Below are positions 4,069 to 32,894 of a stretch of 64,000 bases of DNA, one piece after another. Position 1 is the first letter of the stretch. Every line of letters starts with the position of its first letter. The stretch lies in assembly GCA_040905385.1 (NCBI GenBank), contig JBBDRP010000002.1:459526-523525 (forward strand), given 5' to 3'. The position numbers were made by a program, and so were the translations under genes. Source of the DNA: Minisyncoccota bacterium. Lineage in GTDB: Bacteria > Patescibacteriota > Minisyncoccia > Phycocordibacterales > SW-6-46-9. Below the pieces are notes generated by a model that was not told the origin of the DNA, searched no databases, and worked only from the letters and a program-made list of their open reading frames with translations.

Positions 4069-4102
4069 AATTCAATCTAGTTCCTCCCTAGAATATAACA
4101 AA

Positions 4103-4132
4103 AGGCCTGTCAGCAATTCAGCTGATGGGCCT
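4103..4132. terminator. 12-bp stem hairpin between convergent genes, probably the uvrC terminator
   Basis: aggcctgtcagc-aattc-agctgatgggcct. An A/T run on the minus-strand side gives TTTTGTT after the hairpin. Confidence 0.4.
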
Positions 4133-4231
4133 TTAAAATATCTACATATTATTAAAGAAATCGCTTGCGCCGATTTTAAATCTACTAGGTGTAATGACTT
4201 TCTAACATAAGTACCGGCCTGAGCCGTTCGA

Positions 4232-5464
4232 CTATTCTAAGAATCGCTTACGTCTTTTTTGCTTATGGAAGCTCTGGGCAAAGCGGTGCGACTCAGAGTT
4301 CACAATCTTAATCTCCTTCCCGTGTTCATGAATGATACTTTTTGGGCCTAAAATTGCCTTGGGCTTGTGCTTGTCGTCCTTTACCACCGAAACCACTGGT
4401 ATATCCACCTCTGCAGCCGCTAATTCGGCCTTTACGGCGTTTCGCTGGGCTTTGCCACCATCTATCACAAACACGTCTGGATACGGCCATTCTGGATGTC
4501 CGAGCCGGCGTCGCACTACCTCTGCTAGGGCGGCCGGATCATTCGCTCCGGATACACCTTTAATATTAAATTTACGGTAATCCTCCTTTCGGGCGTAGCC
4601 ATCCTCCAGCACCACCAGCGCGCCAACCATATCATCTGCGGCCAGGTGGGCGATGTCGTACCCCTCTAGTCGTAAATCTGCGCTATCCGCCGATACGGTG
4701 TCCTCCTCTATCAAGGCTACGTCATCAATATGATCAAGGGAGAATATCTGCCCCTTTATCTTTTGCGCTCGTTCGAACTGCTCAGCTTCGGCTGCAGCAT
4801 GCATATCTGCTTTCAGCTTGTCGCGAAGCTTATCAGTTTCTCCCTCCAGGAAAAGTGAGAGGTTACTGATGGTATCCGCGTAAGCCTTCTTCGTAATCTC
4901 GCTGGTGCAGACACCAGGACACAGCCCAATCTGATAAGAAAAGCAGGGCTTCTTATTTCCCTTCTCCTTTACTGGCGTGCACTTACGATCTCGGTATGGA
5001 AAAATCTTGCGAATTATCTTCAGAGCTGATTCTAGCTGACGACGACTCGGATATGGGCCAAAGGATTCCTCTATCTCATCAGGATCGATACTTGTCTGTA
5101 ACTCTCGCTCACGAACGATTCTGATCTGAGGAAACGTCTCATTCGTAAAGATAACAAAATTAGCTGATTTATTATCCTTCTCCTTCGTATTGTACGGTGG
5201 CTGTTTTTTGCCGATTAAATTGCGCTCCAGAATCAAGGCCTCAAGTACCGAGCCGGTCTCTTGATAATCCACCGACGTAGCCTCGGCAACCATCTTCTGA
5301 ATCAGCGGGCTACGGGTCTGCGCCAGATCATCGTTAAAGTAGCTCCGTACACGGTCGTGTAGCGATGTGGCTTTGCCGATGTACAATAACCTTTCTCCAT
5401 CCTTAAAGAAGTACACGCCAGGTGTATCGGGTAACTCCTTGATTTGTTCTTTGATATTAGACAT
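4232..5464 (-). CDS. uvrC: excinuclease ABC subunit C, short form lacking the C-terminal (HhH)2 domain
   Basis: N-terminal GIY-YIG (PGVYFFKDGERLLYIGKATSLHDRVRSYF). UVR domain (FERAQKIKGQIFSL). UvrC RNaseH-like endonuclease region. 410 aa. Confidence 0.85.
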   Translation of the reverse strand: MSNIKEQIKELPDTPGVYFFKDGERLLYIGKATSLHDRVRSYFNDDLAQTRSPLIQKMVAEATSVDYQETGSVLEALILERNLIGKKQPPYNTKEKDNKSANFVIFTNETFPQIRIVRERELQTSIDPDEIEESFGPYPSRRQLESALKIIRKIFPYRDRKCTPVKEKGNKKPCFSYQIGLCPGVCTSEITKKAYADTISNLSLFLEGETDKLRDKLKADMHAAAEAEQFERAQKIKGQIFSLDHIDDVALIEEDTVSADSADLRLEGYDIAHLAADDMVGALVVLEDGYARKEDYRKFNIKGVSGANDPAALAEVVRRRLGHPEWPYPDVFVIDGGKAQRNAVKAELAAAEVDIPVVSVVKDDKHKPKAILGPKSIIHEHGKEIKIVNSESHRFAQSFHKQKRRKRFLE

Positions 5465-5550: not shown

Positions 5551-5606
5551 ATATAAAAGAGTACTCTTTACACAGAACTGAAATCATTATTAAATGGAGA
5601 TAGAAC

Positions 5607-5819
5607 ATGAGAAAGTTATCTTTTGTACTTGTAACGATTGCGATTGCGGTAACTTCAACTATCTTACTTTTACCAGAGACAATAACAGATATCGGAAACG
5701 GTACTGAGAGGGTTGTAAGGTATTTTGCAATTATCTTGAATATATTTGCAGGTGCCTTGATTGCCAGCAAACTTTTTCTCTCTTGGGAGGAAGATGTAGA
5801 AAAAGAAGCAGTAGCATAA
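5607..5819 (+). CDS. small membrane protein
   Basis: GGAGA Shine-Dalgarno 7 nt upstream. Hydrophobic N-terminal segment. Followed by a terminator. Confidence 0.55.
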   Translation: MRKLSFVLVTIAIAVTSTILLLPETITDIGNGTERVVRYFAIILNIFAGALIASKLFLSWEEDVEKEAVA

Positions 5820-5832
5820 CTACAAATTATGA

Positions 5833-5864
5833 AGCTCACAGAACATTATGATCTGTGAGCTTTT
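5833..5864 (+). terminator. rho-independent terminator
   Basis: agctcacag-N11-ctgtgagct 9-bp stem followed by TTTT. Confidence 0.65.
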
Positions 5865-5935
5865 CTATTATTGACAGTACACTTATATACATGTACTATC
5901 ATAAATAGCTAAAATGTTCATTCAATCCAAGACCG

Positions 5936-6337
5936 ATGACTAAAGATCATGAAGCCAAGACCAGTACCGACAAGATAAAATCGTGGTTGATCCAGATAAA
6001 AAAGAAACTTGTTCAGATGGGATCGTGGTTGAACCAGATGAGGAAGAAGGCTGCAGAGTATATCTCTGAATTCATGGCTGAAAAGCCAGAAGCATCAGCA
6101 GTAATAGTGGGTGTTCTTGCCTTCTTTATTGCCAATCAGTTATTTCTTTTCCCTCTATTCACTCCTGAATCAGTGGGACAACTGCAAATATCACGCAAAC
6201 TTGATGCTATGTACGGTCAAGAAGGCTCCTTTATGCTCTTCTCATTCTGGGCACATATAGGTGTTGCTTTAACAACCTATCTTGTCGCTAAATTCACCTT
6301 AGAGAAGTTGTATAAAGAGAAGCAAGGTAGTAACTAG
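5936..6337 (+). CDS. hypothetical membrane protein
   Basis: 133-aa ORF with two hydrophobic segments, followed by a canonical terminator. Confidence 0.55.
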   Translation: MTKDHEAKTSTDKIKSWLIQIKKKLVQMGSWLNQMRKKAAEYISEFMAEKPEASAVIVGVLAFFIANQLFLFPLFTPESVGQLQISRKLDAMYGQEGSFMLFSFWAHIGVALTTYLVAKFTLEKLYKEKQGSN

Positions 6338-6508: not shown

Positions 6509-9127
6509 TTACAATACGTCCTTCAAATACTCCCCCGTTACCGAATCCTTGTTCTCTACGAGCTGCTCGGGTGTTCCTTTAGCAACAATTTTTCCGCCGT
6601 GCTCACCACCACCTGGTCCCATATCAATCACGTAGTCGGCATTTTTTATAATATCTAAATTGTGCTCGATCACCATCACGGTGTTTCCCATATCCACCAG
6701 CTCCTGCAGAATGGTTGTCAGCTGGCGCACATCATCGTAATGCAGACCAACCGTCGGTTCATCCAGGAGGTAAATCGTTTTTTTGGTATGCCGACGATAC
6801 AACTCCGAAGCGATCTTGATTCGCTGTGCCTCACCACCGGAGAGTGTGGTTGATGGCTGGCCCAGCTCTAGGTACGACAACCCGACGCGCACCAGTGTTT
6901 CCAGTCGGTCGGCAATCGGCGGAATATCCTCAAAAAACTCAGCCGCTTCCTCGATTGTCATCGATAATACCTGGAAGATATTCTGCCCTTTATACGTGAT
7001 ATCCAGTGTGTCCTCGGTAAATCGCCGACCATTACAGACCTCGCACGGCACGTGCACCGTTGGCAGAAAGTGCATCTCGATCTTCTGCTCCCCTTTTCCT
7101 TTGCAGGCCTCACAGCGACCGCCGGAGGTATTAAAAGAAAATCGACTCTTGGTAAAACCACGCACCTTCGCCTGCTTGGTCTCGGCGAAGAGGTCACGAA
7201 TGTAATCAAAGGCACTGGTGTATGTAGCCGGGTTAGAACGGCTCGAACGTCCAATTGGCGACTGATCAATCATTACTGCTCGGGCTAGATACTCACTACC
7301 GGCAAATTCGCTACAGTTCACGGGATCCTGTGCGGCCGTCCGGTCATGGTAAATACGCTTGAGGTTCTTGTATAGAATATCGTACAGGAATGATGACTTG
7401 CCCGAGCCGGATACCCCACTAAGTGCGATTAGCTTCCCAAGCGGCAACTGCACATTAAGCCCGTTAATATTATGACGCTTGCCGCCTTTTATACGTAAAT
7501 GACCATTATTCTCCGTACGACGCTTCTCTGGGTACGGGGTAACCTCCTTGCCTTGTAGATACTTCAGGGTTAGCGATTTTTCGGCCGCCTTGTCATCCTT
7601 CATAAGCTCTTTTATTGGGCCATTTGCCATCACCTCTCCGCCATGCACACCAGCCCGTGGTCCAAGATCCAGTAGATGATCCGACGCCTCGATGGTCTGA
7701 CGATCATGTTCTACCACCAGGACAGAGTTACCAATATCACGGAGATTATGAAGTGTGCTAAGCAATCTGTCGGTATCGCGCGAGTGCAGACCAATGGTTG
7801 GCTCATCCAGTACGTACAGCGCACCAACCAACTTACTGCCTAGCTGGCTGGCCAGCCGAATTCGCTGCGCCTCACCACCAGACAGCGTATTGGCTCGGCG
7901 ATCCAGGGTTAGGTACTCAACACCAACATCCGCCATAAAAGAAAGCCGATCGGAAATCTCGCGTGAAACAACATCCACCACCTTCTGCTTGGATCCCTCG
8001 ATCTCAAGATCTGTATACCAGTCAAGCGCTCCTTCAACGGTTAGAGCGACAAACTCGGATATATTCAGCCGCTCATCACCGGCCGTAAGAAAGACGTTCC
8101 GTGCGGCCTCACGCAGTCGGGCACCTTCACAGTCTGGGCACGGCTTACTACCACGAAACTCAGTGGTACCAAGTCCATTACAGGTCGGGCAGGCGCCGTA
8201 TGGCGAGTTGAAGGAGAAAAGTCGTGGCTCAATCTCCGGAAATGAGTACCCATCATACGGGCAGGTAAACTGTGATGACATTAATTTTCCGATAGTATTC
8301 CTTCCTGAGTCGCTTGCCCCGTAGCCGGAGCCTTGCGACGTGGTACCGGGGCCTATCCAAACCCGTACGAGTCCTTCCGCTTCATTAAGAGATCGTTCAA
8401 CTGCTTCGGCCAATCGATCACGAACGTCCCCGCCGTCGCGGGATTTACCCTTACCGGAAAATTCCTCTAATGAAATTGCGTCCACGAGGACATCGATGTC
8501 ATGCGTAGTGTGCTTTTCGAGCACGATCTGTTCACGCAGGCGCTTGGTCTCACCATCAATCAGAACCTGGCTGTAGCCACGCTCGAGTAGATTGTATAGA
8601 AGCTGGTAGTACTCTCCTTTCCGACCACGCACAATTGGCGCGTAGATGTAAACTGCCAGATCGTCGGTGCTTTTCACTTCTTCAAGTTTCTCCTCTACCT
8701 GCTCCCCAATCAGTCGCTGTATTTCCTCGGCCGACAGCTTCTCAATCGGTCGACCACACTCAAGACAGTGTGGCGTACCGACACGTGCAAACAGGATTCG
8801 CAGATAATCATACGTCTCGGTGATGGTTGCCACAGTTGAACGTGGATTATTTGATCTTGACGATTGATCAATCGATATAGCTGGGCTTAATCCCGTAATC
8901 TCGTCAACATCCGGGCGCTGCATCCGGTCTAAGAACTGGCGAGCGTAGCTAGACAGTGATTCAACGTACCGTCGCTGCCCTTCGGCAAAGATGGTATCAA
9001 AAGCCAGAGATGACTTTCCAGAACCAGATACGCCGGTAATAGCCACCAACTCACCACGCGGAATCTCCACGTTTATATCTTTAAGATTGTGCGTCCGAGC
9101 CCCCTTAATTTTTATACTATCATTCAT
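6509..9127 (-). CDS. uvrA: excinuclease ABC subunit A
   Basis: Two ABC ATPase modules: [14 protein letters not shown] and a second GVSGSGKSS. Zinc-finger Cys pairs. N-terminus [32 protein letters not shown]. The in-frame upstream GTG at 9172 is an alternative start. Confidence 0.9.
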
Positions 9128-19775: not shown

Positions 19776-20804
19776 TTATTCGCTAAAGGATCCCTGGTCA
19801 GCCTGGGTGTTATTCTTCAGCCGCTGGATAAACTCCTCGCGGGCCGCCGAGAGATTTGCATCATCACCGCCCCACACATCCAGTACCGGCTGCTGAATTG
19901 CCCGGGCAAACGAGAAGGCCAGCTCAAACGGTAGTGGCTCTAGCTTGGCGATTTCATTGAGATGCGCAGTTGCCTCGTCCGGCTCCTGACCACCAGAGAG
20001 AAATACCACACCAGCCATCTCCGGAGATACAGCCGACTTCAGAACACGAACCGTCTCCTCGGCAATCACTTTATCCTCGACCTCCTCGCCACTTTCTCTT
20101 CCGGGTAGCACCATCGAGGTCTTAATGATGGCCGTCCCACAATCAACGCGGAAGCGATCCATCTGGTAGCAGACCTCCTTCAGCACTGCTTCTGTTACTG
20201 CCGCCGAGCGAGCAAAGGAGTGATCACCGGCATAGATAACCTCCGGCTCTACAATCGGTACGTAACCGCGCTCCTGGGCAATCTTGGCGTAGCGGGCCAG
20301 AATGACCGCATTGGCGTGAATGGCTTCTGGTGTCGGGATATCCTCACCGATCGTGATCACCGCCCGCCACTTGGTAAAGCCGGCTCCGGAATCGCGGTAG
20401 CTTTCCAGCCGATCCCCTAGTCCATCCAGACCTTCTGTCACCACCTCACCATCGAAGCCCGGCAGCGGAACGGTGCCCAGATCAACCTTCACACCCGGAA
20501 TGATTCCCTTCTCATCAAGCAACTTTGGAAACAGCACGCCCTCGTCACTTTTCTGCTCTAGCGTTTCGGTGTACAGAATCACGCCGGAAAGGTACTCACC
20601 AATTCCTTCGGTGTTTAAAAACAGGTTACGATATCGCCGACGATTCTCTTCGGTATTCTCTAGACCAACGGAATCCAGACGCTTTCCGGCGGTGGAGTTG
20701 CTTTCATCTGCGGCCAGAATTCCCTTGCCCGGTGTCATCAGCTGCTCGGCAACATCGCACAGTTTGTTGTGATATTCATTCATTGTGCTTTTAGTATACA
20801 TCAC
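19776..20804 (-). CDS. fba: fructose-bisphosphate aldolase class I
   Basis: GKGILAADESNSTAGKRL...ENRRRYRNLFL is the class-I FBA signature. Confidence 0.85.
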   Translation of the reverse strand: MMYTKSTMNEYHNKLCDVAEQLMTPGKGILAADESNSTAGKRLDSVGLENTEENRRRYRNLFLNTEGIGEYLSGVILYTETLEQKSDEGVLFPKLLDEKGIIPGVKVDLGTVPLPGFDGEVVTEGLDGLGDRLESYRDSGAGFTKWRAVITIGEDIPTPEAIHANAVILARYAKIAQERGYVPIVEPEVIYAGDHSFARSAAVTEAVLKEVCYQMDRFRVDCGTAIIKTSMVLPGRESGEEVEDKVIAEETVRVLKSAVSPEMAGVVFLSGGQEPDEATAHLNEIAKLEPLPFELAFSFARAIQQPVLDVWGGDDANLSAAREEFIQRLKNNTQADQGSFSE

Positions 20805-20880
20805 ATCCAGACTTCACAGATGTGGATATTTTCTGTCTTCTATCAGATTTTCATGCTACTTACCTCGTTATCCTCGCCGT

Positions 20881-20912
20881 GCTAAATAACTCAACCGGTT
20901 GAGTTATTTAAC
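20881..20912. promoter_or_regulatory. 32-nt palindromic element, copy 1 (second copy at 42368-42399)
   Basis: gctaaataactcaaccggttgagttatttaac. 13-bp stem. Overlaps the stop codon of the HTH gene and lies about 75 nt upstream of the fba start. No T-tract. Confidence 0.4.
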
Positions 20913-21203
20913 CTCGTAGTGCACGGAGCGGCCGCTGGTACCGATTTGCTCGATTAGATCCTCGTCTTCAAGCGCATCCAGGTACCGGGTCGCCGTCGCG
21001 TGCGAGACATCCAAAAGCGCCTCGACATCATCATTAGTGATGGTGTCCCGGTCTCCTAGGTACGCAACCAGCCGCTCGAGATTATCCTCCTTCCCTGTCT
21101 GGCTGCGCTGGATCAATGATCCATCCTCACCGGCGCCACTTATCTGTAAAAATATCAGCGCACCACCAATCCCGACAATTATTCCCATGAAAAAGTAAAG
21201 CAT
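20904..21203 (-). CDS. membrane-anchored winged-helix DNA-binding protein
   Basis: N-terminal TM plus VEALLDVSHATATRYLDALEDEDLIEQ HTH. Confidence 0.6.
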   Translation of the reverse strand: MLYFFMGIIVGIGGALIFLQISGAGEDGSLIQRSQTGKEDNLERLVAYLGDRDTITNDDVEALLDVSHATATRYLDALEDEDLIEQIGTSGRSVHYEVK

Positions 21204-21243
21204 AACAGTTTTATTATATCAGTTTAAAAATATATTGATTTTT

Positions 21244-21534
21244 TCATTCTCCCACACTATTTGAAGTAGACTCTAGCTGATTAAACTGACTTTCATCTAA
21301 AAGAAAAGTCTGAGAGATAGTTTGAGAAATCCAGATTGGGACCAGAACCGAAGCTATTAACGCAAATACTGATACTATGATGGCAAATTTAGAAAGTTTC
21401 TTAGCTTCTTTAGATACCCTCCTTGTTAATTTTAACTCTTTATAATCAAGATACTTAAAATAAGCATCATAACTAACAATGTATTTATTATCACCAGCCC
21501 TATAATTATCCCTACAAGGTAATCCTACCAGCAA
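21244..21534 (-). CDS. small membrane protein (last gene of fic-mod-X-res operon)
   Basis: 96 aa, one TM. Overlaps the upstream ORF by 10 nt. Confidence 0.45.
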   Translation of the reverse strand: MLVGLPCRDNYRAGDNKYIVSYDAYFKYLDYKELKLTRRVSKEAKKLSKFAIIVSVFALIASVLVPIWISQTISQTFLLDESQFNQLESTSNSVGE

Positions 21535-21764
21535 AATGGAGTTTCGATATTACTGTTATGTTCAAGAAGCTTCGTCTGTCTTGCATTTAAGTATGCACTA
21601 TGTAAATACTTTCCGATAATCTTTTTCTTCCACTCGTTAGACTCTTCTTTTAAATTTAAGGATTTAATGATTTCCATATATGTAAATCCTTCAGGATGCC
21701 TCATTCCAAATTCTATAGCACGCAGAAAAATATTCTCCTCTATTTTTTCTTCAAGATTACTCAT
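21525..21764 (-). CDS. small hypothetical protein coupled to res
   Basis: 79 aa. Start codon 1 nt after the res stop. Confidence 0.45.
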   Translation of the reverse strand: MSNLEEKIEENIFLRAIEFGMRHPEGFTYMEIIKSLNLKEESNEWKKKIIGKYLHSAYLNARQTKLLEHNSNIETPFCW

Positions 21765-21765
21765 C

Positions 21766-24402
21766 TTAACTACTTATTACGTCATCCCATTTTTCTTCAA
21801 ACTTTTCGTTCACGTCCTCGGTATAGAATGGCATGCCGACGAGTCGATAATCTTTGTCTTCGTAAACTGTCTTCAGATCATACTCTTCTTCGATTTCTTT
21901 TAAAAATTCTTCCTTCCATTTCTCTCCTTCACGCAGGTGCTCACCTTTCGGCTCAATGAAAAGCTGATAATGCACGTCTTTCTTGCCAGAATCACGTAAA
22001 AATAGCACAAAGTCGGGCTCAAGTGGCTTACCGTCAGAAAAGCGATACAGCTGAAACAGCTTCTGATTTCTCAGCAAGTAAATCTCTTCGTACTTTTTCC
22101 GTAACTCCTGCTCAGCATCACTGATAAACTGCACCAAAGACTTCTCTTCTGATGTTCCGTAATTTTTGTCGTAGACGTACCAGTCCTTCTCATCAAGATC
22201 CATCTGATGAAGCGATTGTGACTCCCGCATTTCCACACCGCGCTGCTGATCACCAGATTCATCCAGCGATATCTTCATTTCCTTATCCTTCACAACCACC
22301 TTAATCGCCTTCGGCACAAACTTCTTTGTTCCTTTATACTCAGTAATCTCTTTCTTTACATTATCCAAAACTTGCTTCAACACCCCTTTAGCAATATCAA
22401 ACTTATCCTGCTGTGAAAGATCTCCATAGATACGCTCCTGTAACCCTTTCACAGAAACTTTAACTGAAGCCAGAAACGTATCACTAGAGATAAATTCTTC
22501 CCGGCTTACAAGCTGCGGAAAGCGCTTCTTGAGCGAATGAAAATCAAACCCCTCCAAGCTATCCATGGCCGCTCGGATAACGTGGTCACCTAGATCACTA
22601 AGCTTCATCGGTCTGCTGCTAACTTCTCGGACAACCTGATCTTCTTCAAACGCAGTCTGCTCCTGCGTATCTCCACTGTATATACGATATGAATACTCTT
22701 CAGCAGAGAAATCAAATTCATCATCGGAAAAAACATCCTCCGGCAGACGTTCACGTTTCTCATTCACCCATAAAATACCCTTCTTCCAGAACGGAGTTTT
22801 CTTTATCTCTTCTTTAACTTTTAGAAATACCTCTTTTGAATTATCTGGGATTATTCCTACATCCTTAAGTGCCTGCTTCAGCTCTGAAATATATCTCACA
22901 TTCGAAGCACTATGATAATGTAACTCCTCTAAAATCCGCAAATCATTATTAATATCTTCATCATATTTACGCCTTCCTCTTTCTTGATCTTTGTCGACTT
23001 GAAATGGGTAATAACGAGCCCCCCGACCAATCAGCTGTGCTTCCTGGACTGTAGTTTGTCCAGGAACACCCTCTCTCGCATCACGACTGTCATAAAGTCG
23101 AACAATGTCGAAAAGATTCAAAACATCCCAACCTTCATTAAGTGCCTCCACAGCAAAAACTACTCTGATTTCGTTATCTTCATCCTCAAGCGAGTTGATA
23201 ACTATCTGCTTTTCCCCTTTGTCTTTTTTTGTATCTGAATCTACAGAAATAGCTCTCTCTTCCCCAAACTCAACCTTTAATTCTTTTATCAAGTTTCCTA
23301 ATGCAACATTTTGTTCATTAAAATAAACAAAAGCTTCTTCAACAACCCCATCTGCCTTATTTCTTATTTCTTGTAAATCCTTGACAGTCAATTTATTCAA
23401 TTTTTCGTAGAATTTTTTTCTAAACTCAGATGAAACTACTTTAGTCTTAGGATCAGGAGTTGTAGGCGTATTTACATAGTTTGACTTAAACATCACTACC
23501 GGCTTAAGTGCAATTCCATGATCTTCCGCTACCTTACGTCTATACTGACTTACGACAATTGCCTGCAATGCTCGCTTAATTGCAGGTAAATCAGTTTGTA
23601 GTAACTGAATTTCTTTAGAAAATTTATCGATACGAAACTCCTTAAGAGAGTATCGAAATAATAACTTATCCTCATACTTCTCCGCTACAGATGAATGAGA
23701 TAAATTGGCGGTTGCAGTAAATTCCAACAAAATATTTTCCTTATTTAAATTAAGTATTTCAATAACAGTACCCTCCCAAGACCTCTCTTCTTTTTCTTCT
23801 TTTTTGGTCAACTTAGACTTCGTTAAAGCATCGAGATTATGTGCCTCATCTGCAATTAAAGCTGTTTTACTTCTGCTTAATTCATCAAAAGTTATTTCAT
23901 TCTCTTTAGGGAAATGACGCCTTCTATGTAAAGAAGATGTTGTAGTAAAGATAATATTGATATCATCCTTATTTACGCCTTCAAAATTATCAACTGATTG
24001 AATGTTAATATGCTTGCCATCGATCACGATTTGGTCATTAAAAAGATATTTATTTCCCGCAGAATTCAAGAAATTTTCCTTTGTCTTCTCAATAATATTC
24101 CCAAGTCGAGTAAAAAAGATAAAGTTTCGGTAGCCTCGCTTGTAGAGCTGGAGAATATTTGCCGCCATGACGAGCGTCTTTCCCGACCCTGTCGCCATCT
24201 CATACAAAAGTTGAGTCGGCTTCTGACGCAGATTTTCGTGATCCATATAGAAATCAAAGCGACCTATCGCCTCCTTCTGATACTTCCGCAGTTCAAAGTC
24301 AGACCGGAGATTATCTGCTACCACATCACCAACCCGTGATGTGAAGATATCCGGACCTTCTATATCATGATAGCTATTCAGTTTTTCATTCAATGTTGGC
24401 AT
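21766..24402 (-). CDS. res: Type III restriction enzyme Res subunit (helicase-nuclease)
   Basis: Motif I MATGSGKTLV, motif II IADEAHNL (DEAH), C-terminal PD-(D/E)xK (EPDFVLF ... FIEPKG). 878 aa. Confidence 0.8.
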   Translation of the reverse strand: MPTLNEKLNSYHDIEGPDIFTSRVGDVVADNLRSDFELRKYQKEAIGRFDFYMDHENLRQKPTQLLYEMATGSGKTLVMAANILQLYKRGYRNFIFFTRLGNIIEKTKENFLNSAGNKYLFNDQIVIDGKHINIQSVDNFEGVNKDDINIIFTTTSSLHRRRHFPKENEITFDELSRSKTALIADEAHNLDALTKSKLTKKEEKEERSWEGTVIEILNLNKENILLEFTATANLSHSSVAEKYEDKLLFRYSLKEFRIDKFSKEIQLLQTDLPAIKRALQAIVVSQYRRKVAEDHGIALKPVVMFKSNYVNTPTTPDPKTKVVSSEFRKKFYEKLNKLTVKDLQEIRNKADGVVEEAFVYFNEQNVALGNLIKELKVEFGEERAISVDSDTKKDKGEKQIVINSLEDEDNEIRVVFAVEALNEGWDVLNLFDIVRLYDSRDAREGVPGQTTVQEAQLIGRGARYYPFQVDKDQERGRRKYDEDINNDLRILEELHYHSASNVRYISELKQALKDVGIIPDNSKEVFLKVKEEIKKTPFWKKGILWVNEKRERLPEDVFSDDEFDFSAEEYSYRIYSGDTQEQTAFEEDQVVREVSSRPMKLSDLGDHVIRAAMDSLEGFDFHSLKKRFPQLVSREEFISSDTFLASVKVSVKGLQERIYGDLSQQDKFDIAKGVLKQVLDNVKKEITEYKGTKKFVPKAIKVVVKDKEMKISLDESGDQQRGVEMRESQSLHQMDLDEKDWYVYDKNYGTSEEKSLVQFISDAEQELRKKYEEIYLLRNQKLFQLYRFSDGKPLEPDFVLFLRDSGKKDVHYQLFIEPKGEHLREGEKWKEEFLKEIEEEYDLKTVYEDKDYRLVGMPFYTEDVNEKFEEKWDDVISS

Positions 24403-24412
24403 GGCTACGTAT

Positions 24413-25900
24413 TTAATTTCTTCGATAATTCACTTTAATAATAGGTTTATATCCTGCATTTTGAACCTCTTTTTTCCAATCGACTAATTTCATTAGAAAA
24501 ATAAGTGACTTAGTATCCGAAATGTTTTCTAGATCTTTCTTTTTATCTAAAACTATCCAAAGGCAAATATTCTTCACTTGCTTTTTTTGACCGTCAATTT
24601 CTATTTCATTATCATTGTGTTGTAACAACCTTAATGTATTCATCGATTGATCTACTACATAATTCATCTTTCCAGTTTGACCCACTTTGACAAAGTATAT
24701 TGTTTCACCTTTGTATAAATCCATCTTTTCAACTGAATACCTATCGCCAATTTGCTCTACAGTAGTGTGAGTGCTTAGATAATCATTATTCTCAAGCATT
24801 TCTATGAATTCATCCTCTCCTACTCCTGAAGATATATCATGTTCTGCGCCATACTCTAGGTCGATTTTATCAACTTCACTTTTTAAGGAATCTAAGTAAG
24901 ACTCATTAAATTTGTACCACCTTCCGTCAACCAAACAATTGCGTTCATCGTCAGAATAATCGAGTAATTCTTTTATGGATTTTGTAAACTGATTTCCAGT
25001 ATCTTTAAATACTTTCACTTTAATCTTTGAAAAATCACGAGGTATTTCCATATCATTAGATGACACAAAGTCCTGTAAATCTTTTATACTGATGTCACCA
25101 GCCTCTGACTCATTAACCTCCTGATAAACTTTATATAATTTATATCTATAATCTGACTGAAAAATAAAATTAACTCCCAAAACAGAGAATTCATCCATAG
25201 AAATATCTGCTTCCATGATTTTTTCCGCCAGTTTCTTATCTAGTTCTTCTATTTCACGTTCTTCCGTTATCTTTTGTGCTCTAGGAATGGAAAAAATCGG
25301 ATCCTTTTTTAGGTCCTTTCTAATATTATCTAAAACTTCAGGAAGTTCTATTAATGTAATATCGAGGCTGAATTTAGCAGAAGTTCCACAATGCACCTTA
25401 CTTCCATACTTTTCTTCATCATCTGGAATGCCTTTTAAATACCCTATAGACTCTCCACTATCAAACGTAATTATAGACTCAGAAATATAGCTGGTAATAG
25501 TCTTGCTTTTGATGCTCTTATAAAACTTTGAGTTTTTCATCTTTATCGACTCCGGATCAAGTATTCTTTCTGCAAAATTCAAACCGAAGTCCGGATCGCA
25601 AAACTGCTGTAAATAAAAATATGTTTTACCAAAAGAGACCACATAATACTCATCTTCTTTTTCAGCAACAAGAGCTCCGAATTGGGATTTATTTTTGTAA
25701 TCCCCCTGATCTTCAAGGAAATCTTCACATAAATCAAGCCACCATACCTCACTGGGATCCGGGTTCTTTGAGATGTAGAAAGTCATGGAATATCCTCCCA
25801 GATTGTTATTTTTTTGTTTTTTAAGACCTACTTTAGAAAACTTTTTAAATAAATCCTGTATATTCTCTTCTGAAATTTTGTATATATTAAATGTTGCCAT
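24413..25900 (-). CDS. uncharacterised 495-aa protein encoded between Type III mod and res
   Basis: No recognisable motif. About 30% GC. Start overlaps the mod stop by 14 nt. Ends 10 nt before the res start. Confidence 0.7.
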   Translation of the reverse strand: MATFNIYKISEENIQDLFKKFSKVGLKKQKNNNLGGYSMTFYISKNPDPSEVWWLDLCEDFLEDQGDYKNKSQFGALVAEKEDEYYVVSFGKTYFYLQQFCDPDFGLNFAERILDPESIKMKNSKFYKSIKSKTITSYISESIITFDSGESIGYLKGIPDDEEKYGSKVHCGTSAKFSLDITLIELPEVLDNIRKDLKKDPIFSIPRAQKITEEREIEELDKKLAEKIMEADISMDEFSVLGVNFIFQSDYRYKLYKVYQEVNESEAGDISIKDLQDFVSSNDMEIPRDFSKIKVKVFKDTGNQFTKSIKELLDYSDDERNCLVDGRWYKFNESYLDSLKSEVDKIDLEYGAEHDISSGVGEDEFIEMLENNDYLSTHTTVEQIGDRYSVEKMDLYKGETIYFVKVGQTGKMNYVVDQSMNTLRLLQHNDNEIEIDGQKKQVKNICLWIVLDKKKDLENISDTKSLIFLMKLVDWKKEVQNAGYKPIIKVNYRRN

Positions 25901-27845
25901 AAAATTCTTTATTTAGATCTTTGTCATCCTCACTGATTTCATATCGTTTATCAGCGATATCGCCATAGTTTACGTAGAGGTGGTTGTTATCAAGCACATC
26001 TAGGAGGAACTTTTGCATGTCTTCTTTAAGAAGATCATTGAAGCTTTCAGCTTCCTCATTGATTTTCTCCAGGTCAACCTGCCAGGAGAGAAAGCCGTTC
26101 TCCTGGATCTCCTTCCAGATCTTCTTAAGCTCAGATACCTTGGCTGACTTTATCTGCTCGCGATACTCCTGATTCGATTTTGCAAGCTCAGCGAATACAA
26201 CATCACCGCCACCCTCCCACTGAACATCAGAAGATACACCGCTCTCCTCTCCTTCAATTACATTCTTAAGACGAGATCTCATCTTTTTTATATGGCTACT
26301 TAATTGCTCCACCATAATATATTTACGAGACATTTTGTGAGCAACAGCACCAGTTGTTCCAGATCCTGCAAAAAAGTCCATTACAATGTCACCCTCATCG
26401 GTAGCCAAATCTATAATTCTTTTTAAAAGCTTTTCTGGCTTTTTCCCAAACCTTAGGTCAACTCCTCCTTCGTTTGCTAGATTATTGATACCGATATCAG
26501 TCCATATATCACCAAGTGCTTCGACTGGAGTTTTTTTACCTCTTATAGTTTGCACCTTATCTGCAGCAAATACCACATCCTCTCCCTTATAAACAAAGTA
26601 ATATGAATCATCTAAATTTGTCACTTTGGAAAACTTATCACTAGGCAAATTTGAATAATCTGCACCTCTATTACGAGCTGTTCGAAATATCTTATCGGCA
26701 TTATCTAATTTAAACTGATTCACCTGAGACTCATTATTTGAATCTATGTCTGCACGCTTTATTGCTTGATTTAATGTGATTATCTCCCATTTTTCACAGT
26801 CTTTTTCATTAAACCCTTTTTTATTAATAAAAGAAGTGTATCTATCAAGCGCATCATCCCAAGATGCAGGGCTGTATTGAGGTGTGATTTGTGGATTATC
26901 TGACTTTGAATACATTAGTATATATTCTTTTATTTTAGGAATTTTTTTATCCTTATGAGCCATTTTTACACCACTTAAATAAGACATTTGAACGCAAATA
27001 TTTGTCTGAAAAGATTTTCTCTGAAACACTTCATCACATAAATTCTTTAAATAACTTTGTTCAATGTCATCTATTTGTATAAATATAAATCCATCATCCG
27101 AAAGAAGTTTATCAGCCACATCTAATCTATTCCTCATAAATGTTAGCCAAGTAGAGTGATTAAAGCTATCATTATAAGAGAAGTTGTCTCTATCTGTGTT
27201 GTAAGGTGGATCAATATAAATAAGCTTCACCTTGCCCGCAAAACGCTCTTTGAGTGAATGTAGCGCCAGCAGGTTATTGCCCTGGAGAACAAGATTCTCC
27301 TCCAGATTACCCTTATCATCTTCCTTCAGCTCCTCAACCTCATGCTCGCCGTCTTTGTCGATTCGCTGCCAGTCTGTGAGTGCCTTTGGTTCGAAAAGGC
27401 GGCGGATCTCATCCGGAGCCAGAGTTTCGTTCCAGAAGATTTCATCACGCTTGGCGTCTTCTTTGGTCTGTCCACCTTCAAGCACGCAGTCTTTGTATGG
27501 CCAGGAGAGCACAACTTCGTTTGAGCGGGAGATAAAGTCGCCGCGATCATTTGTCAGCCCGATCTTGTTTTTGAAGCTTGTGTAGCTGTCGGGGAGAAAA
27601 TCCTTGTTGTGTACAAAAGAGGTGAAGGCATCGACATCAAAAATAGTCGTATCACCGATATCTTTAAAGAACCGCTCCTTTGTCGCCTTATTTTTCAAGA
27701 GTAGCGTAATTAGATCCTCATCAAGCTTTCGCGCCAGCTCGGCAACCTTATTCTTCAGAAGTTTGTCATCCTCAGACACCAGCCGCTCATCCTGGCGGAG
27801 GATATCCTTAATCTCATTCATTGATTGTTTCTGTGATTGCGGCAT
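25887..27845 (-). CDS. mod: Type III R-M Mod subunit (N6-adenine DNA methyltransferase, beta class)
   Basis: Motif IV LIYIDPPYNT precedes motif I VMDFFAGSGTTG. 652 aa. Confidence 0.85.
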   Translation of the reverse strand: MPQSQKQSMNEIKDILRQDERLVSEDDKLLKNKVAELARKLDEDLITLLLKNKATKERFFKDIGDTTIFDVDAFTSFVHNKDFLPDSYTSFKNKIGLTNDRGDFISRSNEVVLSWPYKDCVLEGGQTKEDAKRDEIFWNETLAPDEIRRLFEPKALTDWQRIDKDGEHEVEELKEDDKGNLEENLVLQGNNLLALHSLKERFAGKVKLIYIDPPYNTDRDNFSYNDSFNHSTWLTFMRNRLDVADKLLSDDGFIFIQIDDIEQSYLKNLCDEVFQRKSFQTNICVQMSYLSGVKMAHKDKKIPKIKEYILMYSKSDNPQITPQYSPASWDDALDRYTSFINKKGFNEKDCEKWEIITLNQAIKRADIDSNNESQVNQFKLDNADKIFRTARNRGADYSNLPSDKFSKVTNLDDSYYFVYKGEDVVFAADKVQTIRGKKTPVEALGDIWTDIGINNLANEGGVDLRFGKKPEKLLKRIIDLATDEGDIVMDFFAGSGTTGAVAHKMSRKYIMVEQLSSHIKKMRSRLKNVIEGEESGVSSDVQWEGGGDVVFAELAKSNQEYREQIKSAKVSELKKIWKEIQENGFLSWQVDLEKINEEAESFNDLLKEDMQKFLLDVLDNNHLYVNYGDIADKRYEISEDDKDLNKEFYGNI

Positions 27846-27847
27846 AT

Positions 27848-28984
27848 TTATTCGCTAAAGGCTTTAAGATAGCGCTTGTACTCGAAGCGACGATCGTAGT
27901 TTTTATCTTTGTCTTGTTGCTCTAGTATACCAATATCAACTAATACATCCACAAGCTCGTTGGCAGTTGTTCGTGATAAACCAGTCCAGCTCTCTACTTT
28001 TTTTACACTCACGATCGGCAGCTCATACAGCTTGTTTAGCACAGTTGTTGCATTATCAGCCCGGCGACCGAGCGACTCGGCTTTTTCGAGGTCTTCTTTG
28101 CGAATTTCATGAATAGTGCGCGCAGTTTTAATAGCATCTTCAGATACTTCGGCAATACCACGCAAGAAAAACCGTAACCATGACACGAAATCACCGTCAT
28201 TATGATAGCGGTTAATCAAATCAAAATACCCTTCGCGGTGTTTGCGTAGGTATGCTGATAAATACAATACCGGCTTGTCCAAAAGCTCGAGCTGACACAG
28301 ATAAAATGTAACAAGTAGCCGACCAACCCGCCCGTTGCCGTCAAGAAACGGGTGAATTGTCTCGAACTGAGCATGAGCCAGTGCGGTTTTAACAAGTGGA
28401 GAAGTAACATCATCAGCATGGAGAAATTCTTCTAGGTCACTCATGGCATCTCCAATATGGTCAGCTGGAGGCGGTACAAATTTAGCAGTATCAGGTGAGT
28501 TACCGCCGATCCAGTTCTGACTGGTGCGAAATCTTCCTGGTGTTTTTCCTTTTCCGTCCTCTGTCCCCTCCATCAAAGTTTTGTGGATTTCTTTTATCAA
28601 ACGACTTGATAGCGGCAGATCAGACAATTTACCCAACCCCTCATTCATTGCCTGAATGTACTTACTAATGTTCTCGACATCTTTAGGAATATCTCCCTCA
28701 ACATCAGCATCGACTTTAATAGAGTCGGCCATAGTTGCCATGGTGCCTTCAATCTCAGCAGAATAAGCTGCCTCTTTTCGTACGTACATAAAAATGAAAA
28801 AATCAAGATCTGGAAGAACCTGTGTAATGCCGTCTAACTTACCAAGCGAAAAAAATGCGCGGTCATGCAAAGACTGTAAATCTTCATCAAGAGTAGGAAG
28901 ATTCTTGGGTGGAAACTTTTTAGGTACAAACGCCGTGTACCCTTGGGGTTGTTTGATAAATGTGCCGATATCCATAACATTCAA
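27848..28984 (-). CDS. fic: Fic/DOC family protein (class II, N-terminal inhibitory motif)
   Basis: HPFLDGNGRVGRLL Fic motif. SAEIEG inhibitory helix motif near the N-terminus. C-terminal winged helix. Confidence 0.85.
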   Translation of the reverse strand: MNVMDIGTFIKQPQGYTAFVPKKFPPKNLPTLDEDLQSLHDRAFFSLGKLDGITQVLPDLDFFIFMYVRKEAAYSAEIEGTMATMADSIKVDADVEGDIPKDVENISKYIQAMNEGLGKLSDLPLSSRLIKEIHKTLMEGTEDGKGKTPGRFRTSQNWIGGNSPDTAKFVPPPADHIGDAMSDLEEFLHADDVTSPLVKTALAHAQFETIHPFLDGNGRVGRLLVTFYLCQLELLDKPVLYLSAYLRKHREGYFDLINRYHNDGDFVSWLRFFLRGIAEVSEDAIKTARTIHEIRKEDLEKAESLGRRADNATTVLNKLYELPIVSVKKVESWTGLSRTTANELVDVLVDIGILEQQDKDKNYDRRFEYKRYLKAFSE

Positions 28985-29047
28985 TGTTTACTTGTTAGGA
29001 TTATAGCACTAAAACCTAACAAGTGCAAAGGGGTTGTTAGGTTTTAA

Positions 29048-29683
29048 TCACGTTACACTCTCCCACTCTGATTCAGATACAATAACGTGATCAACTAACG
29101 AAATACCTAAAATTTCCCCGGCTTTTTTGAGCTTTTTAGTTATTTCCTTGTCTTCCTGTGATGGCGTAGTGTCTCCCGACGGATGATTATGCGCCAGGAT
29201 TATACTGGACGCCCGATCGGTCACCGCATCAGCAAAGACTTCTCGTGGGTGCACCAAGCTTGCATCAAGTGTACCAACAGAGATCGTGCGCTGACTGATA
29301 ACGCGCCCGGCGCCATCAAGGCTGATGGCTTGTAAGTATTCTCGCTTTTTATTGCGGATATCTGAAAGCAATGGTAAGACATCTTTTGCTTTCTGAATGC
29401 GGGTCACGTCCTCGCGCACAAAGCGATTCGCGATTTCTAGCGATGCCAAGATGCGCGATGCACTGGCTGAACCAACGCCTTTTATCTCCAAAAGCGCATC
29501 TAATGTAATAGCATCTGTGCCACTTTCTAGTTTTTCTAAAATGGCTTCGGCGATATCTGCCACCAGCGAGCCAGGAACACCGCTACCAACGACAATTTGC
29601 AAAAGCTCTGCATCCGACAGTGCTTTTACACCCTTTGCTTCAAGCTTTTCACGAGGGCGATCAACTTTTGGAACATCCTTCAT
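29048..29683 (-). CDS. radC: RadC-like JAB domain protein
   Basis: ILAHNHPSGDTTPSQEDKEIT JAMM motif. N-terminal HhH. Confidence 0.8.
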   Translation of the reverse strand: MKDVPKVDRPREKLEAKGVKALSDAELLQIVVGSGVPGSLVADIAEAILEKLESGTDAITLDALLEIKGVGSASASRILASLEIANRFVREDVTRIQKAKDVLPLLSDIRNKKREYLQAISLDGAGRVISQRTISVGTLDASLVHPREVFADAVTDRASSIILAHNHPSGDTTPSQEDKEITKKLKKAGEILGISLVDHVIVSESEWESVT

Positions 29684-29840
29684 GTTATTTAAATCTTACC
29701 ATCCACACCACCCGAAACGAAGCGGGGTAATGCGCAAAGCAGCCACCACTCTCCTGCTTGTCTCGGTCGGTCTCACTAATTGGTTGCCTTTTAGCGACTC
29801 GAAACAATGTTAATTGTGTCCAGCCTCAACACCTGTCATA

Positions 29841-31404: not shown

Positions 31405-31836
31405 TCAGCCTTTATTTTCTTGAAGTATTACTACGGGGTCGGAGTTTGGCGGTTCAACTGTAGTAAAAAGATTTTTCTCATGAAAAATAACTACAGGATC
31501 GCTGTTTGGCGGTTCAACTGAAACCAGAACCCCGTCACCACCAGCCTGTATGTCAATCCCAACAGGATTTGTAAACTCATGTTCAGGAGAGCTTTCACCC
31601 TCACGAAATTCCGGGTCAGCGTGACCATCTCCGTCGTCATCACTATCCTCGTCACGAACAGAGGTCGGCTTATTCGAGCGCGTCGCGTTATAGTCTTGAG
31701 CTTGCGTCGCTCCTGGTGGTGAGTTTACTTTAATTATTTCGCCAACTTTTGAGGCCTCGGCCACGGGTATGGTAGAAATTACCAGACCCACAAAAGCGAA
31801 CGAGACGATACTAAATATTGCTATTTTTCTATACAT
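31405..31836 (-). CDS. secreted protein with internal 20-aa repeat, sharing a module with the tandem-HU protein
   Basis: Signal peptide. 60-nt direct repeat encoding TVEPPNSDPVVI twice. Shares YNA(T/S)RSNKPTS plus an Asp/Gly-rich tract with the 31917 gene. Confidence 0.55.
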   Translation of the reverse strand: MYRKIAIFSIVSFAFVGLVISTIPVAEASKVGEIIKVNSPPGATQAQDYNATRSNKPTSVRDEDSDDDGDGHADPEFREGESSPEHEFTNPVGIDIQAGGDGVLVSVEPPNSDPVVIFHEKNLFTTVEPPNSDPVVILQENKG

Positions 31837-31916: not shown

Positions 31917-32894
31917 TTAATTGACGGACTTTGAAAGTTCTGCGCCGGCTTTGAACTTAACCACGTTCTTAGCGGCTATTTGAATTTCTTTGCCTGTTTG
32001 TGGATTGCGACCGGTGCGTGCAGATCGTTTGCTGATACTGAATGATCCGAAGCCAATGAGTGAGATTCTATCACCCTTTTTGAGCGCTCTCGTTGTTGCG
32101 TTAGTAAAACCTTCAAGTGCTTTTTTGGCATCCGCTTTTGAGAGACCTGCTTTACTTGCGATCTCGTCGATAAGTTCAGCTTTGTTCATTCTTTCCTGTA
32201 TATCATTGTCGTCTCCATCATCCCCGTCGGCATCAACGGGTGATTTAGATGTAGGTTTGTTTGAACGAGACGCGTTATAGCCTTTAGCAGGTGCTACGTT
32301 CTCTCCGCTATTAGATGAACCGTCGTCATCAATACCCTTGATGCCGGGGCCGCCTTTAAATTCGTCAATTTTGCCTCGCGTCGCCTCTGTTTCGCTATCA
32401 CGCCCACCGTGACCAATTTGTGGATTGCGTCCGGTGCGTGCAGATCGTTTGCTGATACTGAATGAACCAAATCCAATCAATGAAATACGATCTCCTTTTT
32501 CCAAAATTTCCGTTGTTACGTTAGTAAAACCTTCAAGCGCTTTTTTTGCATCGGCTTTTGAGATCTTTGCGTCACTAGCGATCGCGTCGATAAGTTCAGC
32601 TTTGTTCATTCTTTCCGATATATCGTCATCCCCGTCGTCACCTCCACCTGATATCTCCGGAAGTTTCTTTTTAAGAATGCGCATGATTTCGTCGCCGTTA
32701 GGAGTATCCTTTTCTGCCTCCACAGCTTGCTTTCCTCTAACAAACTCACCGATTGTTCCGCCGTCATCTCCTCGTTCTTTTTCTTCAGGAGGATTATCAA
32801 TTGAGCGAGCTTCTGCGCTCATAGGCGTCGTGACGGTTAATACTCCAACAATCACAAGAACAATAGCGAATGTAAAGTAATAAAAATATTTCAT
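31917..32894 (-). CDS. secreted protein with two tandem HU/IHF-type DNA-binding domains
   Basis: Signal peptide MKYFYYFTFAIVLVIVGVLTVTTPMSAEA. Two copies of MNKAELID(A/E)IASxAxxSKADAKKALEGFTNxTTxxLxKGDRISLIGFGSFSISKRSARTGRNPQ (HU fold). Confidence 0.75.
   Translation of the reverse strand: MKYFYYFTFAIVLVIVGVLTVTTPMSAEARSIDNPPEEKERGDDGGTIGEFVRGKQAVEAEKDTPNGDEIMRILKKKLPEISGGGDDGDDDISERMNKAELIDAIASDAKISKADAKKALEGFTNVTTEILEKGDRISLIGFGSFSISKRSARTGRNPQIGHGGRDSETEATRGKIDEFKGGPGIKGIDDDGSSNSGENVAPAKGYNASRSNKPTSKSPVDADGDDGDDNDIQERMNKAELIDEIASKAGLSKADAKKALEGFTNATTRALKKGDRISLIGFGSFSISKRSARTGRNPQTGKEIQIAAKNVVKFKAGAELSKSVN

Follow-up and report, generated by a model that had tools for sequence, protein, structure and literature searches.

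A DUF6119 gene between mod and res of a Type III restriction-modification locus of a Minisyncoccota bacterium, a candidate phage-defence gene of putative nuclease type

We analysed a stretch of 64,000 nucleotides from a Minisyncoccota bacterium (contig JBBDRP010000002.1), hereafter called the window, with a focus on a gene of the DUF6119 family, termed X, which lies between the mod and res genes of a Type III restriction-modification system. Six open reading frames (ORFs) follow each other on the minus strand, in the order fic (27848-28984), mod (25887-27845), X (24413-25900; 1488 nucleotides, 495 amino acids), res (21766-24402), o79 (21525-21764; 79 amino acids) and o96 (21244-21534; 96 amino acids). 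An earlier interpretation made without database searches, the sequence-only reading, had regarded them as a coupled six-gene composite defence system. All six ORFs were found on the sequence at the positions it had given, with the proposed spacings: fic and mod are 2 nucleotides apart, mod and X overlap by 14, X ends 10 nucleotides before res, res is separated by a single nucleotide from o79, and o79 overlaps o96 by 10. Its motifs could be located as well, namely HPFLDGNGRVGRLL and SAEIEG in Fic, LIYIDPPYNT ahead of FAGSGTTG in Mod, and GSGKT, DEAH and EPDF...EPKG in Res. A gene of unassigned function does lie between mod and res, and the gene order matches no named system. The coupled composite system itself is not supported by our results, with Fic classified as a single-gene SoFic protein and the two small ORFs as parts of one gene.

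The core of the locus is, as far as its sequence allows us to judge, an ordinary Type III restriction-modification system, whose Mod and Res proteins are full length and contain all catalytic motifs. Mod matches PF12564 (1e-21), PF01555 (2e-43) and the PADLOC model MTase_III PDLC03635 (3.7e-185). Its motif order, with DPPY ahead of FxGxG, bears out the proposed beta-class N6-adenine pattern of Type III methyltransferases, in agreement with the PF12564 N-terminal domain. Res, a superfamily 2 (SF2) helicase with a C-terminal PD-(D/E)xK nuclease, matches PF04851 (ResIII; 3e-26), the HI_1054 families and PADLOC REase_III PDLC03651 (2e-138). It keeps the residues that are invariant in 24 relatives (Walker A G72-T76, D185-E-A-H188, D797, E817 and K819) and is apparently intact. 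With EcoP15I-like Type III systems (HI_1054-type Res, TypeIII_RM_meth Mod), the window system shares the beta-class motif order and Type III N-terminal domain of Mod, the SF2 helicase motifs and C-terminal PD...ExK nuclease of Res, the common orientation of the two genes with mod first, and the central position of the variable target-recognition domain in Mod. It differs from them in that res does not directly follow mod, the unrelated 495-amino-acid gene X (1488 nucleotides) intervening, and in that a SoFic gene lies 2 nucleotides upstream and a small membrane-protein gene 1 nucleotide downstream.

The target-recognition domain of Mod (26466-27068, minus strand; approximately residues 260-460) bears no resemblance to the same region of close relatives. 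In a comparison with four relatives, the first 40% of Mod showed 44-92% identity, the centre 11-23% and the last tenth 49-85%, with values of 66-92% (N-terminal) and 85% (C-terminal) for the relative at locus L073 (loci are numbered with the prefix L). The guanine-cytosine (GC) content of the domain is 0.27-0.36, as opposed to 0.40-0.51 in its flanks, and the values for successive eighths of mod, from 5' to 3', are.44,.51,.42,.27,.33,.36,.43 and.40. Because the low-GC part coincides with the variable centre of the protein, we read it as a swapped target-recognition domain rather than as evidence of a chimeric mod gene.

The protein encoded by X had been described as motif-less, a view refuted by matches above the respective cut-offs to PF19614 (DUF6119; 129.4 bits with a cut-off of 27, 2e-37, residues 4-485) and TIGR04141 ('sporadically distributed protein'; 99.4 bits with a cut-off of 35, 1.7e-28). 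Besides the window's own protein, we found 59 homologues with 27-44% identity. Members of the family were seen in the Patescibacteria, Bacteroidota, Cyanobacteria, Firmicutes, Actinobacteria and Proteobacteria. When 32 homologues were aligned, 15 residues proved invariant (W54, Y86, G91, D102, G149, E150, G172, S174, P206, L220, W328, N332, D394, K405 and Q418). We considered whether X might be a transposase, part of a split Res or one of the named accessory proteins of Type III systems and found it to be none of these, and none of the PADLOC v2 models matched it. Family searches also gave no match to AAA_13 or an ATP-binding cassette (ABC) ATPase, and the conserved columns of the alignment include no P-loop.

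The structure of the whole X protein was modelled with a predicted local distance difference test (pLDDT) score of 80.7. A Foldseek search of the complete model against the PDB returned nothing at E <= 0.001, the DUF6119 profile gave only chance matches to PDB sequences (E ~1), and there was no informative structural match for the N-terminal ~340 residues. The C-terminal domain (24416-24883, minus strand; residues 340-495) yields nuclease-fold matches and has a putative restriction-endonuclease-like PD-(D/E)xK fold, with the conserved residues E362, E391, D394, K405, D417 and Q418, among which D394, K405 and Q418 are invariant. Judging from the secondary structure, D394 would precede one strand, K405 would lie in the next strand, and D417-Q418 would be part of the following helix. 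X can be likened in this respect to Shedu (SduA, DUF4263), which is able to act alone and combines a C-terminal PD-(D/E)xK nuclease with a variable N-terminal part. A direct kinship of the C-terminal domain of X with Shedu was considered and rejected: there was no PADLOC SduA match, and a comparison of its profile with two Shedu proteins, at an hhalign probability of 0.3%, shows no relationship.

The junction between mod and res was then compared among relatives of Res, a very large family, which were drawn from viral contigs, general assemblies and plasmids. All six of the closest distinct relatives with a visible mod gene (53-76% identity) carry other genes at this position. The closest of them (L073; 76%) contains a pair of unannotated genes for coiled-coil proteins of 276 and 320 amino acids (2887-4685). 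Three others (L074, 55%; L115 and L116, both 54%) have genes for Ppl-like ATPases of 937, 935 and 961 amino acids, respectively, with a match to the PADLOC Ppl model (4e-21 to 3.5e-38) in the last ~120-135 residues. In L075/L076 (55%), the junction is occupied by Shedu (SduA, 5e-103), which thus fills the same position as X, and in L114 (54%) by a PDC-S06/AAA_13 gene (6e-203). A seventh relative (L117; 53%) was left out of the comparison, its upstream side being cut by the contig edge. At 35-48% identity, Res relatives on viral contigs mostly have mod adjoining res, and the two genes are also adjacent in two distant non-viral relatives, located on an Anaerolineae chromosome (L123; 48%) and a Thioclava plasmid (L126; 43%). 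Small inserts were seen in L077 (192 amino acids, 972-1550), L100 (229 amino acids, 7245-7934) and L125 (145 amino acids, 5564-6001, Chryseobacterium plasmid). The insert proteins of L077 and L100 gave no matches, and that of L125 shows similarity to a portion of a Type II restriction enzyme (PADLOC, 2e-18). Given the differing inserts of the closest relatives, the mod/res junction behaves as a variable slot. On two viral contigs, it is a related mod gene itself that is split, in L080 (1470-2900) by two extra ORFs, possibly an insertion sequence, and in L101 (4239-7395) by ORFs of 556 and 497 amino acids, possibly recombinases.

To describe the settings of DUF6119 genes, 71 genome loci were examined, with X on a usable ORF in 67. 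No same-strand neighbour within 60 nucleotides is present at 42 of these 67 loci. Among the tight partners at the remaining 25, restriction genes form the largest group (ResIII at 8, N6_N4_Mtase at 5 and Type I sets at 3), and ~11 of the 67 copies are located within or next to restriction systems (Type I, Type III or Type ISP-like). Three loci (L009, L011 and L035) show the order HTH-mod-X-res, starting with a helix-turn-helix (HTH) gene and including overlaps of 8-14 nucleotides; their Type III systems are of another family (MTase_III PDLC03638, 1e-228 to 1e-279). The same other family is represented in L010, where X is followed by res and the contig ends inside res, with mod not visible. Further arrangements are mod-res-X (L013), hsdM-hsdS-hsdR-X (L001), hsdS-hsdR-X (L007) and Dcm/Type ISP-like/Vsr/X (L031). 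In L052 (5260-14508), the order is SoFic-hsdM-hsdS-192aa-X-hsdR, and L069 (316-6192) is laid out similarly. These last two are Clostridia loci in which SoFic-hsdM-hsdS and one or two small genes are followed by DUF6119; they repeat the trio of SoFic, restriction system and DUF6119 seen in the window, but the host system is of Type I and X is only distantly related (28% identity). In Membranihabitans maritimus (L003, 5196-11518), a DUF6119 gene begins 3 nucleotides after a Qat-like set (KAP NTPase, a 284-amino-acid gene, QueC-like, TatD).

In a neighbour-joining tree of DUF6119, the restriction-linked copies are scattered, suggesting repeated independent insertions. The X proteins of L009, L011 and L035 form a tight clade, and that of the window occupies a long branch beside L012, whose 4.4-kb contig shows no adjacent restriction genes. 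Large serine recombinases flank X at four loci (L012, L025, L033 and L035). Records of X homologues on mobile elements are rare, comprising two plasmids and three phages. In a search for a conserved fic-mod-X-res synteny, the window's genome was the only one in our sample to combine this arrangement with this Mod/Res family. The idea of X as part of a coupled composite system could likewise not be upheld, given that most of its homologues have no tightly linked same-strand neighbour and its place is taken by other genes in the closest relatives of Mod/Res.

The first gene of the locus encodes a protein with Fic_N (PF13784, 4e-18) and Fic (PF02661, 9e-22) domains, which aligns with the PADLOC SoFic model over almost its entire length (1.2e-109; residues 15-377 on model positions 5-359 of 361). 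SoFic proteins have the active-site pattern HPFx(D/E)GN(G/K)R, and the window protein carries the active-site motif HPFLDGNGRVGR together with the inhibitory motif SAEIEG. The full-length model match, the two domains and both motifs are features common to SoFic and the window protein; the latter differs in that it scores 159.6 bits with the NCBIfam SoFic equivalog, below the cut-off of 550, and in that only 2 nucleotides separate its gene from a Type III mod gene, with which it is probably co-transcribed. It is predicted to be a SoFic-type single-gene defence protein and thus to belong to a separately described system. The ATG at 28975 may be its true start. Fic genes recur near restriction operons (L076, L078, L052 and L069), and SoFic in particular directly precedes hsdM in L052 and L069 and, in L076, lies close to mod.

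At the other end of the locus, the two small ORFs, previously counted as separate genes, turned out to be one gene of ~173 codons (21244-21764, minus strand) broken by a frameshift, with o79 representing its N-terminal and o96 its C-terminal part. In a word-index search, o79 had no match but itself. An exhaustive HMMER search with o96 recovered 114 homologues (E <= 0.001) of ~150-185 amino acids, always through their C-terminal parts, and the N-terminal halves of these proteins resemble o79. The frameshift site (21533-21536, minus strand) is a T4 run, one base short of T5, that reads ...GAAACTCCATTTTGCTGGTAGGA...; the DNA at the o79/o96 junction reads GAAACTCCATTTTGCTGGTAG. Addition of one T at 21533-21536 yields the sequence ETPFLLVG, corresponding to ETPFLL in the homologues, and a 173-amino-acid protein that can be aligned over its whole length with 11 of them (46% identity to P0188). 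The frameshift in the T-run may be either real or an assembly error. The repaired protein has a hydrophobic stretch that is predicted to span the membrane and belongs to an unnamed conserved family with no significant Pfam match and no PADLOC match. Downstream of res, different loci have unrelated small genes; the 185-amino-acid gene after res in L073, considered as a possible member of the o79/o96 family, was rejected as unrelated. In L118 (6798-8555), the gene for P0188, an intact homologue of the window's split gene, begins 9 nucleotides after the end of a Shedu (SduA_C) gene. This pair may be a two-gene variant of Shedu; two other members of the P0188 family occur in unrelated contexts.

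The composition of the locus sets it apart from its surroundings. The GC figures of the sequence-only reading were only approximate, the value for fic being 43% rather than ~50%, but the low GC content of X was borne out (32.1%). The mean of the whole window is 45.2%, and its lowest-GC 1-kb stretch falls within X. The value for res is 38.9% overall, with ~32-35% in eighths 2-4 and 41-46% towards the 3' end. The proposal that this compositionally odd defence locus was horizontally acquired is upheld. When the ends of the island and of X were searched for direct or inverted repeats, only short pairs turned up, probably due to chance, and no tRNA gene was found beside the island. Directly 5' of fic, a promoter-like site (29000-29029, minus strand) consists of TTTGCA, an 18-nucleotide spacer and TG-TATAAT and represents a candidate promoter of the operon. 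With 10 of 12 matches and an extended -10 element, it scores highest within 20500-29800. The total of promoter-like matches in the region is no greater than in shuffled sequence, so that the site constitutes weak evidence. It is overlapped by an imperfect 28-nucleotide inverted repeat (28975-29039; 71% complementary, 9-nucleotide spacer), which might be an operator.

Genes nested within restriction loci have precedents in the literature. Since PrrC and RloC, accessory genes have been described in Type I loci and, occasionally, in those of Type III (PMC2610378; review PMC12707154); PrrC and RloC themselves are linked to Type I/III systems (PMC2610378). Like X, PrrC (Type Ic) and RloC (Type I/III) are encoded by non-restriction genes that lie within a restriction operon in the same orientation. 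Payne et al. (2024; bioRxiv 10.1101/2024.01.29.577857) surveyed Hma, BREX, DISARM and Type I systems, but no Type III systems, for 'guilt-by-embedding', and DUF6119 is absent from this paper and its supplements. The genes it describes are nested in multi-gene systems on the same strand, vary between related hosts and are often unannotated. X likewise lies between core genes, on the same strand, and differs among related host systems; it departs from the survey in that its host is a Type III system and DUF6119 has no PADLOC v2 model. In the tables of DefensePredictor (2026; PMC13092281), TIGR04141/DUF6119 carries the label 'Predicted novel defense gene' at log-odds of ~10-14, and both terms are absent from its tables of tested systems. 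A full-text literature search for DUF6119 or TIGR04141 otherwise returned irrelevant papers only, making these supplementary tables the sole relevant mention.

Collectively, our results favour, with moderate confidence, the view that the locus is a mosaic in which an autonomous DUF6119 effector is embedded in an intact Type III system that lies next to SoFic. DUF6119 thereby emerges as a good candidate for a phage-defence gene of a putative nuclease type rather than as part of a new six-gene system. In this mosaic, Mod would methylate host sites, and Res, as an ATP-dependent helicase-nuclease, would cut incoming unmethylated DNA. A DUF6119 gene would have been inserted at the mod/res junction, with SoFic placed directly upstream of mod, and the junction in this Type III lineage would serve as a slot for interchangeable defence genes, exchanged, we infer, by recombination. 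The C-terminal domain of X would cut nucleic acid, and its N-terminal ~340 residues, which have no recognisable relatives, may sense or regulate. Through its embedding, X would be co-expressed and co-transferred with the restriction system, thus adding a second layer of defence.

Several points weigh against the mosaic reading. X lacks the acidic residue that normally forms part of the (D/E)xK motif: the residue two positions before K405 is F, A or S across homologues, and the window protein reads F403-V-K405. With F403 in place of the acidic residue, catalysis would need E391 or D417. Active sites of the Cfr10I/NgoMIV type provide examples of a substituted acidic residue in a PD-(D/E)xK active site, and the conserved residues E391, D417 and Q418 could compensate for its loss in X, whose active site, if functional, would be non-canonical. 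Alternatively, X could be inactive or act in DNA binding only. Moreover, the contrast between the closest relatives of Res, all with an insert, and the distant ones, mostly with adjacent genes, mixes two sources, in that the former came from general assemblies and most of the latter from viral contigs. The nearest neighbours of DUF6119 copies that are not restriction-linked are varied and often housekeeping genes, so there is no clear enrichment of the family in defence islands, and we found no record in the literature of an experimental test tying DUF6119 to defence. Finally, it is from their spacing alone that the fic, mod, X and res genes are probably transcribed together.

Three other explanations for X appear less likely than the mosaic because of the points that count against each of them. 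The first starts from PrrC and RloC, proteins with an N-terminal ABC-type ATPase domain (AAA_13) and a C-terminal Arg-Glu-His triad that are bound and silenced by the linked restriction enzyme. In a similar manner, X could guard the restriction enzyme, staying silent on Mod/Res (or a Type I enzyme) and turning into a toxic nuclease, which would abort the infection, once a phage anti-restriction protein disables the enzyme. PrrC is a precedent for such a role (PMC12707154), and X is tightly embedded, with its 14-nucleotide overlap with mod and the 10 nucleotides that separate it from res. Embedded DUF6119 genes recur in restriction loci of both Type I and Type III, the R subunits of which are alike in their SF2 helicase-nuclease architecture, and the restriction-linked minority of ~11 of 67 copies is close to the 8 of 73 RloC genes linked to restriction systems (PMC2610378). 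In addition, an RloC-like AAA_13 (PDC-S06) gene occupies the identical position in L114. However, most DUF6119 genes have no adjacent restriction system, and the restriction-linked copies do not form one clade. To our knowledge, PrrC, by comparison, is almost always embedded in restriction loci. X also shares no domain with PrrC and RloC: neither the ABC ATPase domain nor the HEPN-like anticodon-nuclease triad was found in family searches, and DUF6119 has a conserved, putatively restriction-endonuclease-like C-terminal domain instead. A physical interaction of X with the enzyme is conjecture, and we consider a guard function unlikely. Slightly more doubtful still is the broader idea that DUF6119 represents a new class of guards, latent nucleases docked on the R subunits of Type I/III enzymes and fired by anti-restriction, with the mod/res junction as a dedicated exchange site for guards that include Shedu, PDC-S06 and the Ppl-like proteins.

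It is improbable that X is a selfish mobile gene, encoding a homing-type or addiction nuclease of no benefit to the host, that landed between mod and res by chance. Its sporadic distribution, with single-gene insertions among housekeeping genes, its extremely low GC content, its nuclease-like fold and the adjacent large serine recombinases in L012, L025, L033 and L035 would agree with this explanation. Yet, no terminal or flanking repeats were found around X or the island, the gene is oriented like mod and res, overlaps the former and stops 10 nucleotides before the latter, and relatives carry validated or candidate defence genes (Shedu, PDC-S06) at the same position; its rarity on plasmids (two records) and phages (three records) also argues against it. 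Very improbable, finally, is that X belongs to a modified Type III enzyme as its integral third subunit, for example as an added nuclease or DNA-recognition module needed for restriction, since its translational coupling to mod and res, and the HTH-mod-X-res order retained with 8-14-nucleotide overlaps in L009, L011 and L035, whose X proteins form a tight clade as co-evolution predicts, stand against a Res with its own complete nuclease and helicase motifs, entirely different inserts in the closest Mod/Res relatives and none in slightly more distant ones, and X homologues that are mostly unlinked to any neighbour gene.

If DUF6119 proteins are defence effectors, as the mosaic reading proposes, a family spanning many phyla gains a function. 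Judging from our comparison, new defence genes could be found by mining the mod/res junction of one Type III lineage. With a survey of mod/res junctions, the embedding approach, published for Type I, BREX, DISARM and Hma systems, is extended to Type III. Immediate unannotated candidates are the genes for the 276- and 320-amino-acid pair of L073, the 192-amino-acid protein of L077, the 229-amino-acid protein of L100 and the ATPases of L074, L115 and L116. The embedding of defence genes in other systems has already been published, and current understanding is not overturned.

Additional ORFs were observed on either side of the locus. On the minus strand at 20904-21203, a 99-amino-acid ORF with a GC content of 52.7% and its own TATAAT encodes a hydrophobic N-terminal stretch and a winged-helix domain, the latter weakly similar to the C-terminal domain of SoFic (PADLOC SoFic, 2e-6); a perfect 14+14-nucleotide palindrome (20883-20910) overlaps its stop codon. 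On the other side, a 325-amino-acid ORF (31917-32894, minus strand) encodes a hydrophobic N-terminus and acidic linkers between two near-identical repeats (MNKAELID...GRNPQ), which by eye are HU/IHF-like, and is adjoined by a 143-amino-acid ORF (31405-31836, minus strand) in which the motif VEPPNSDPVVI is repeated.

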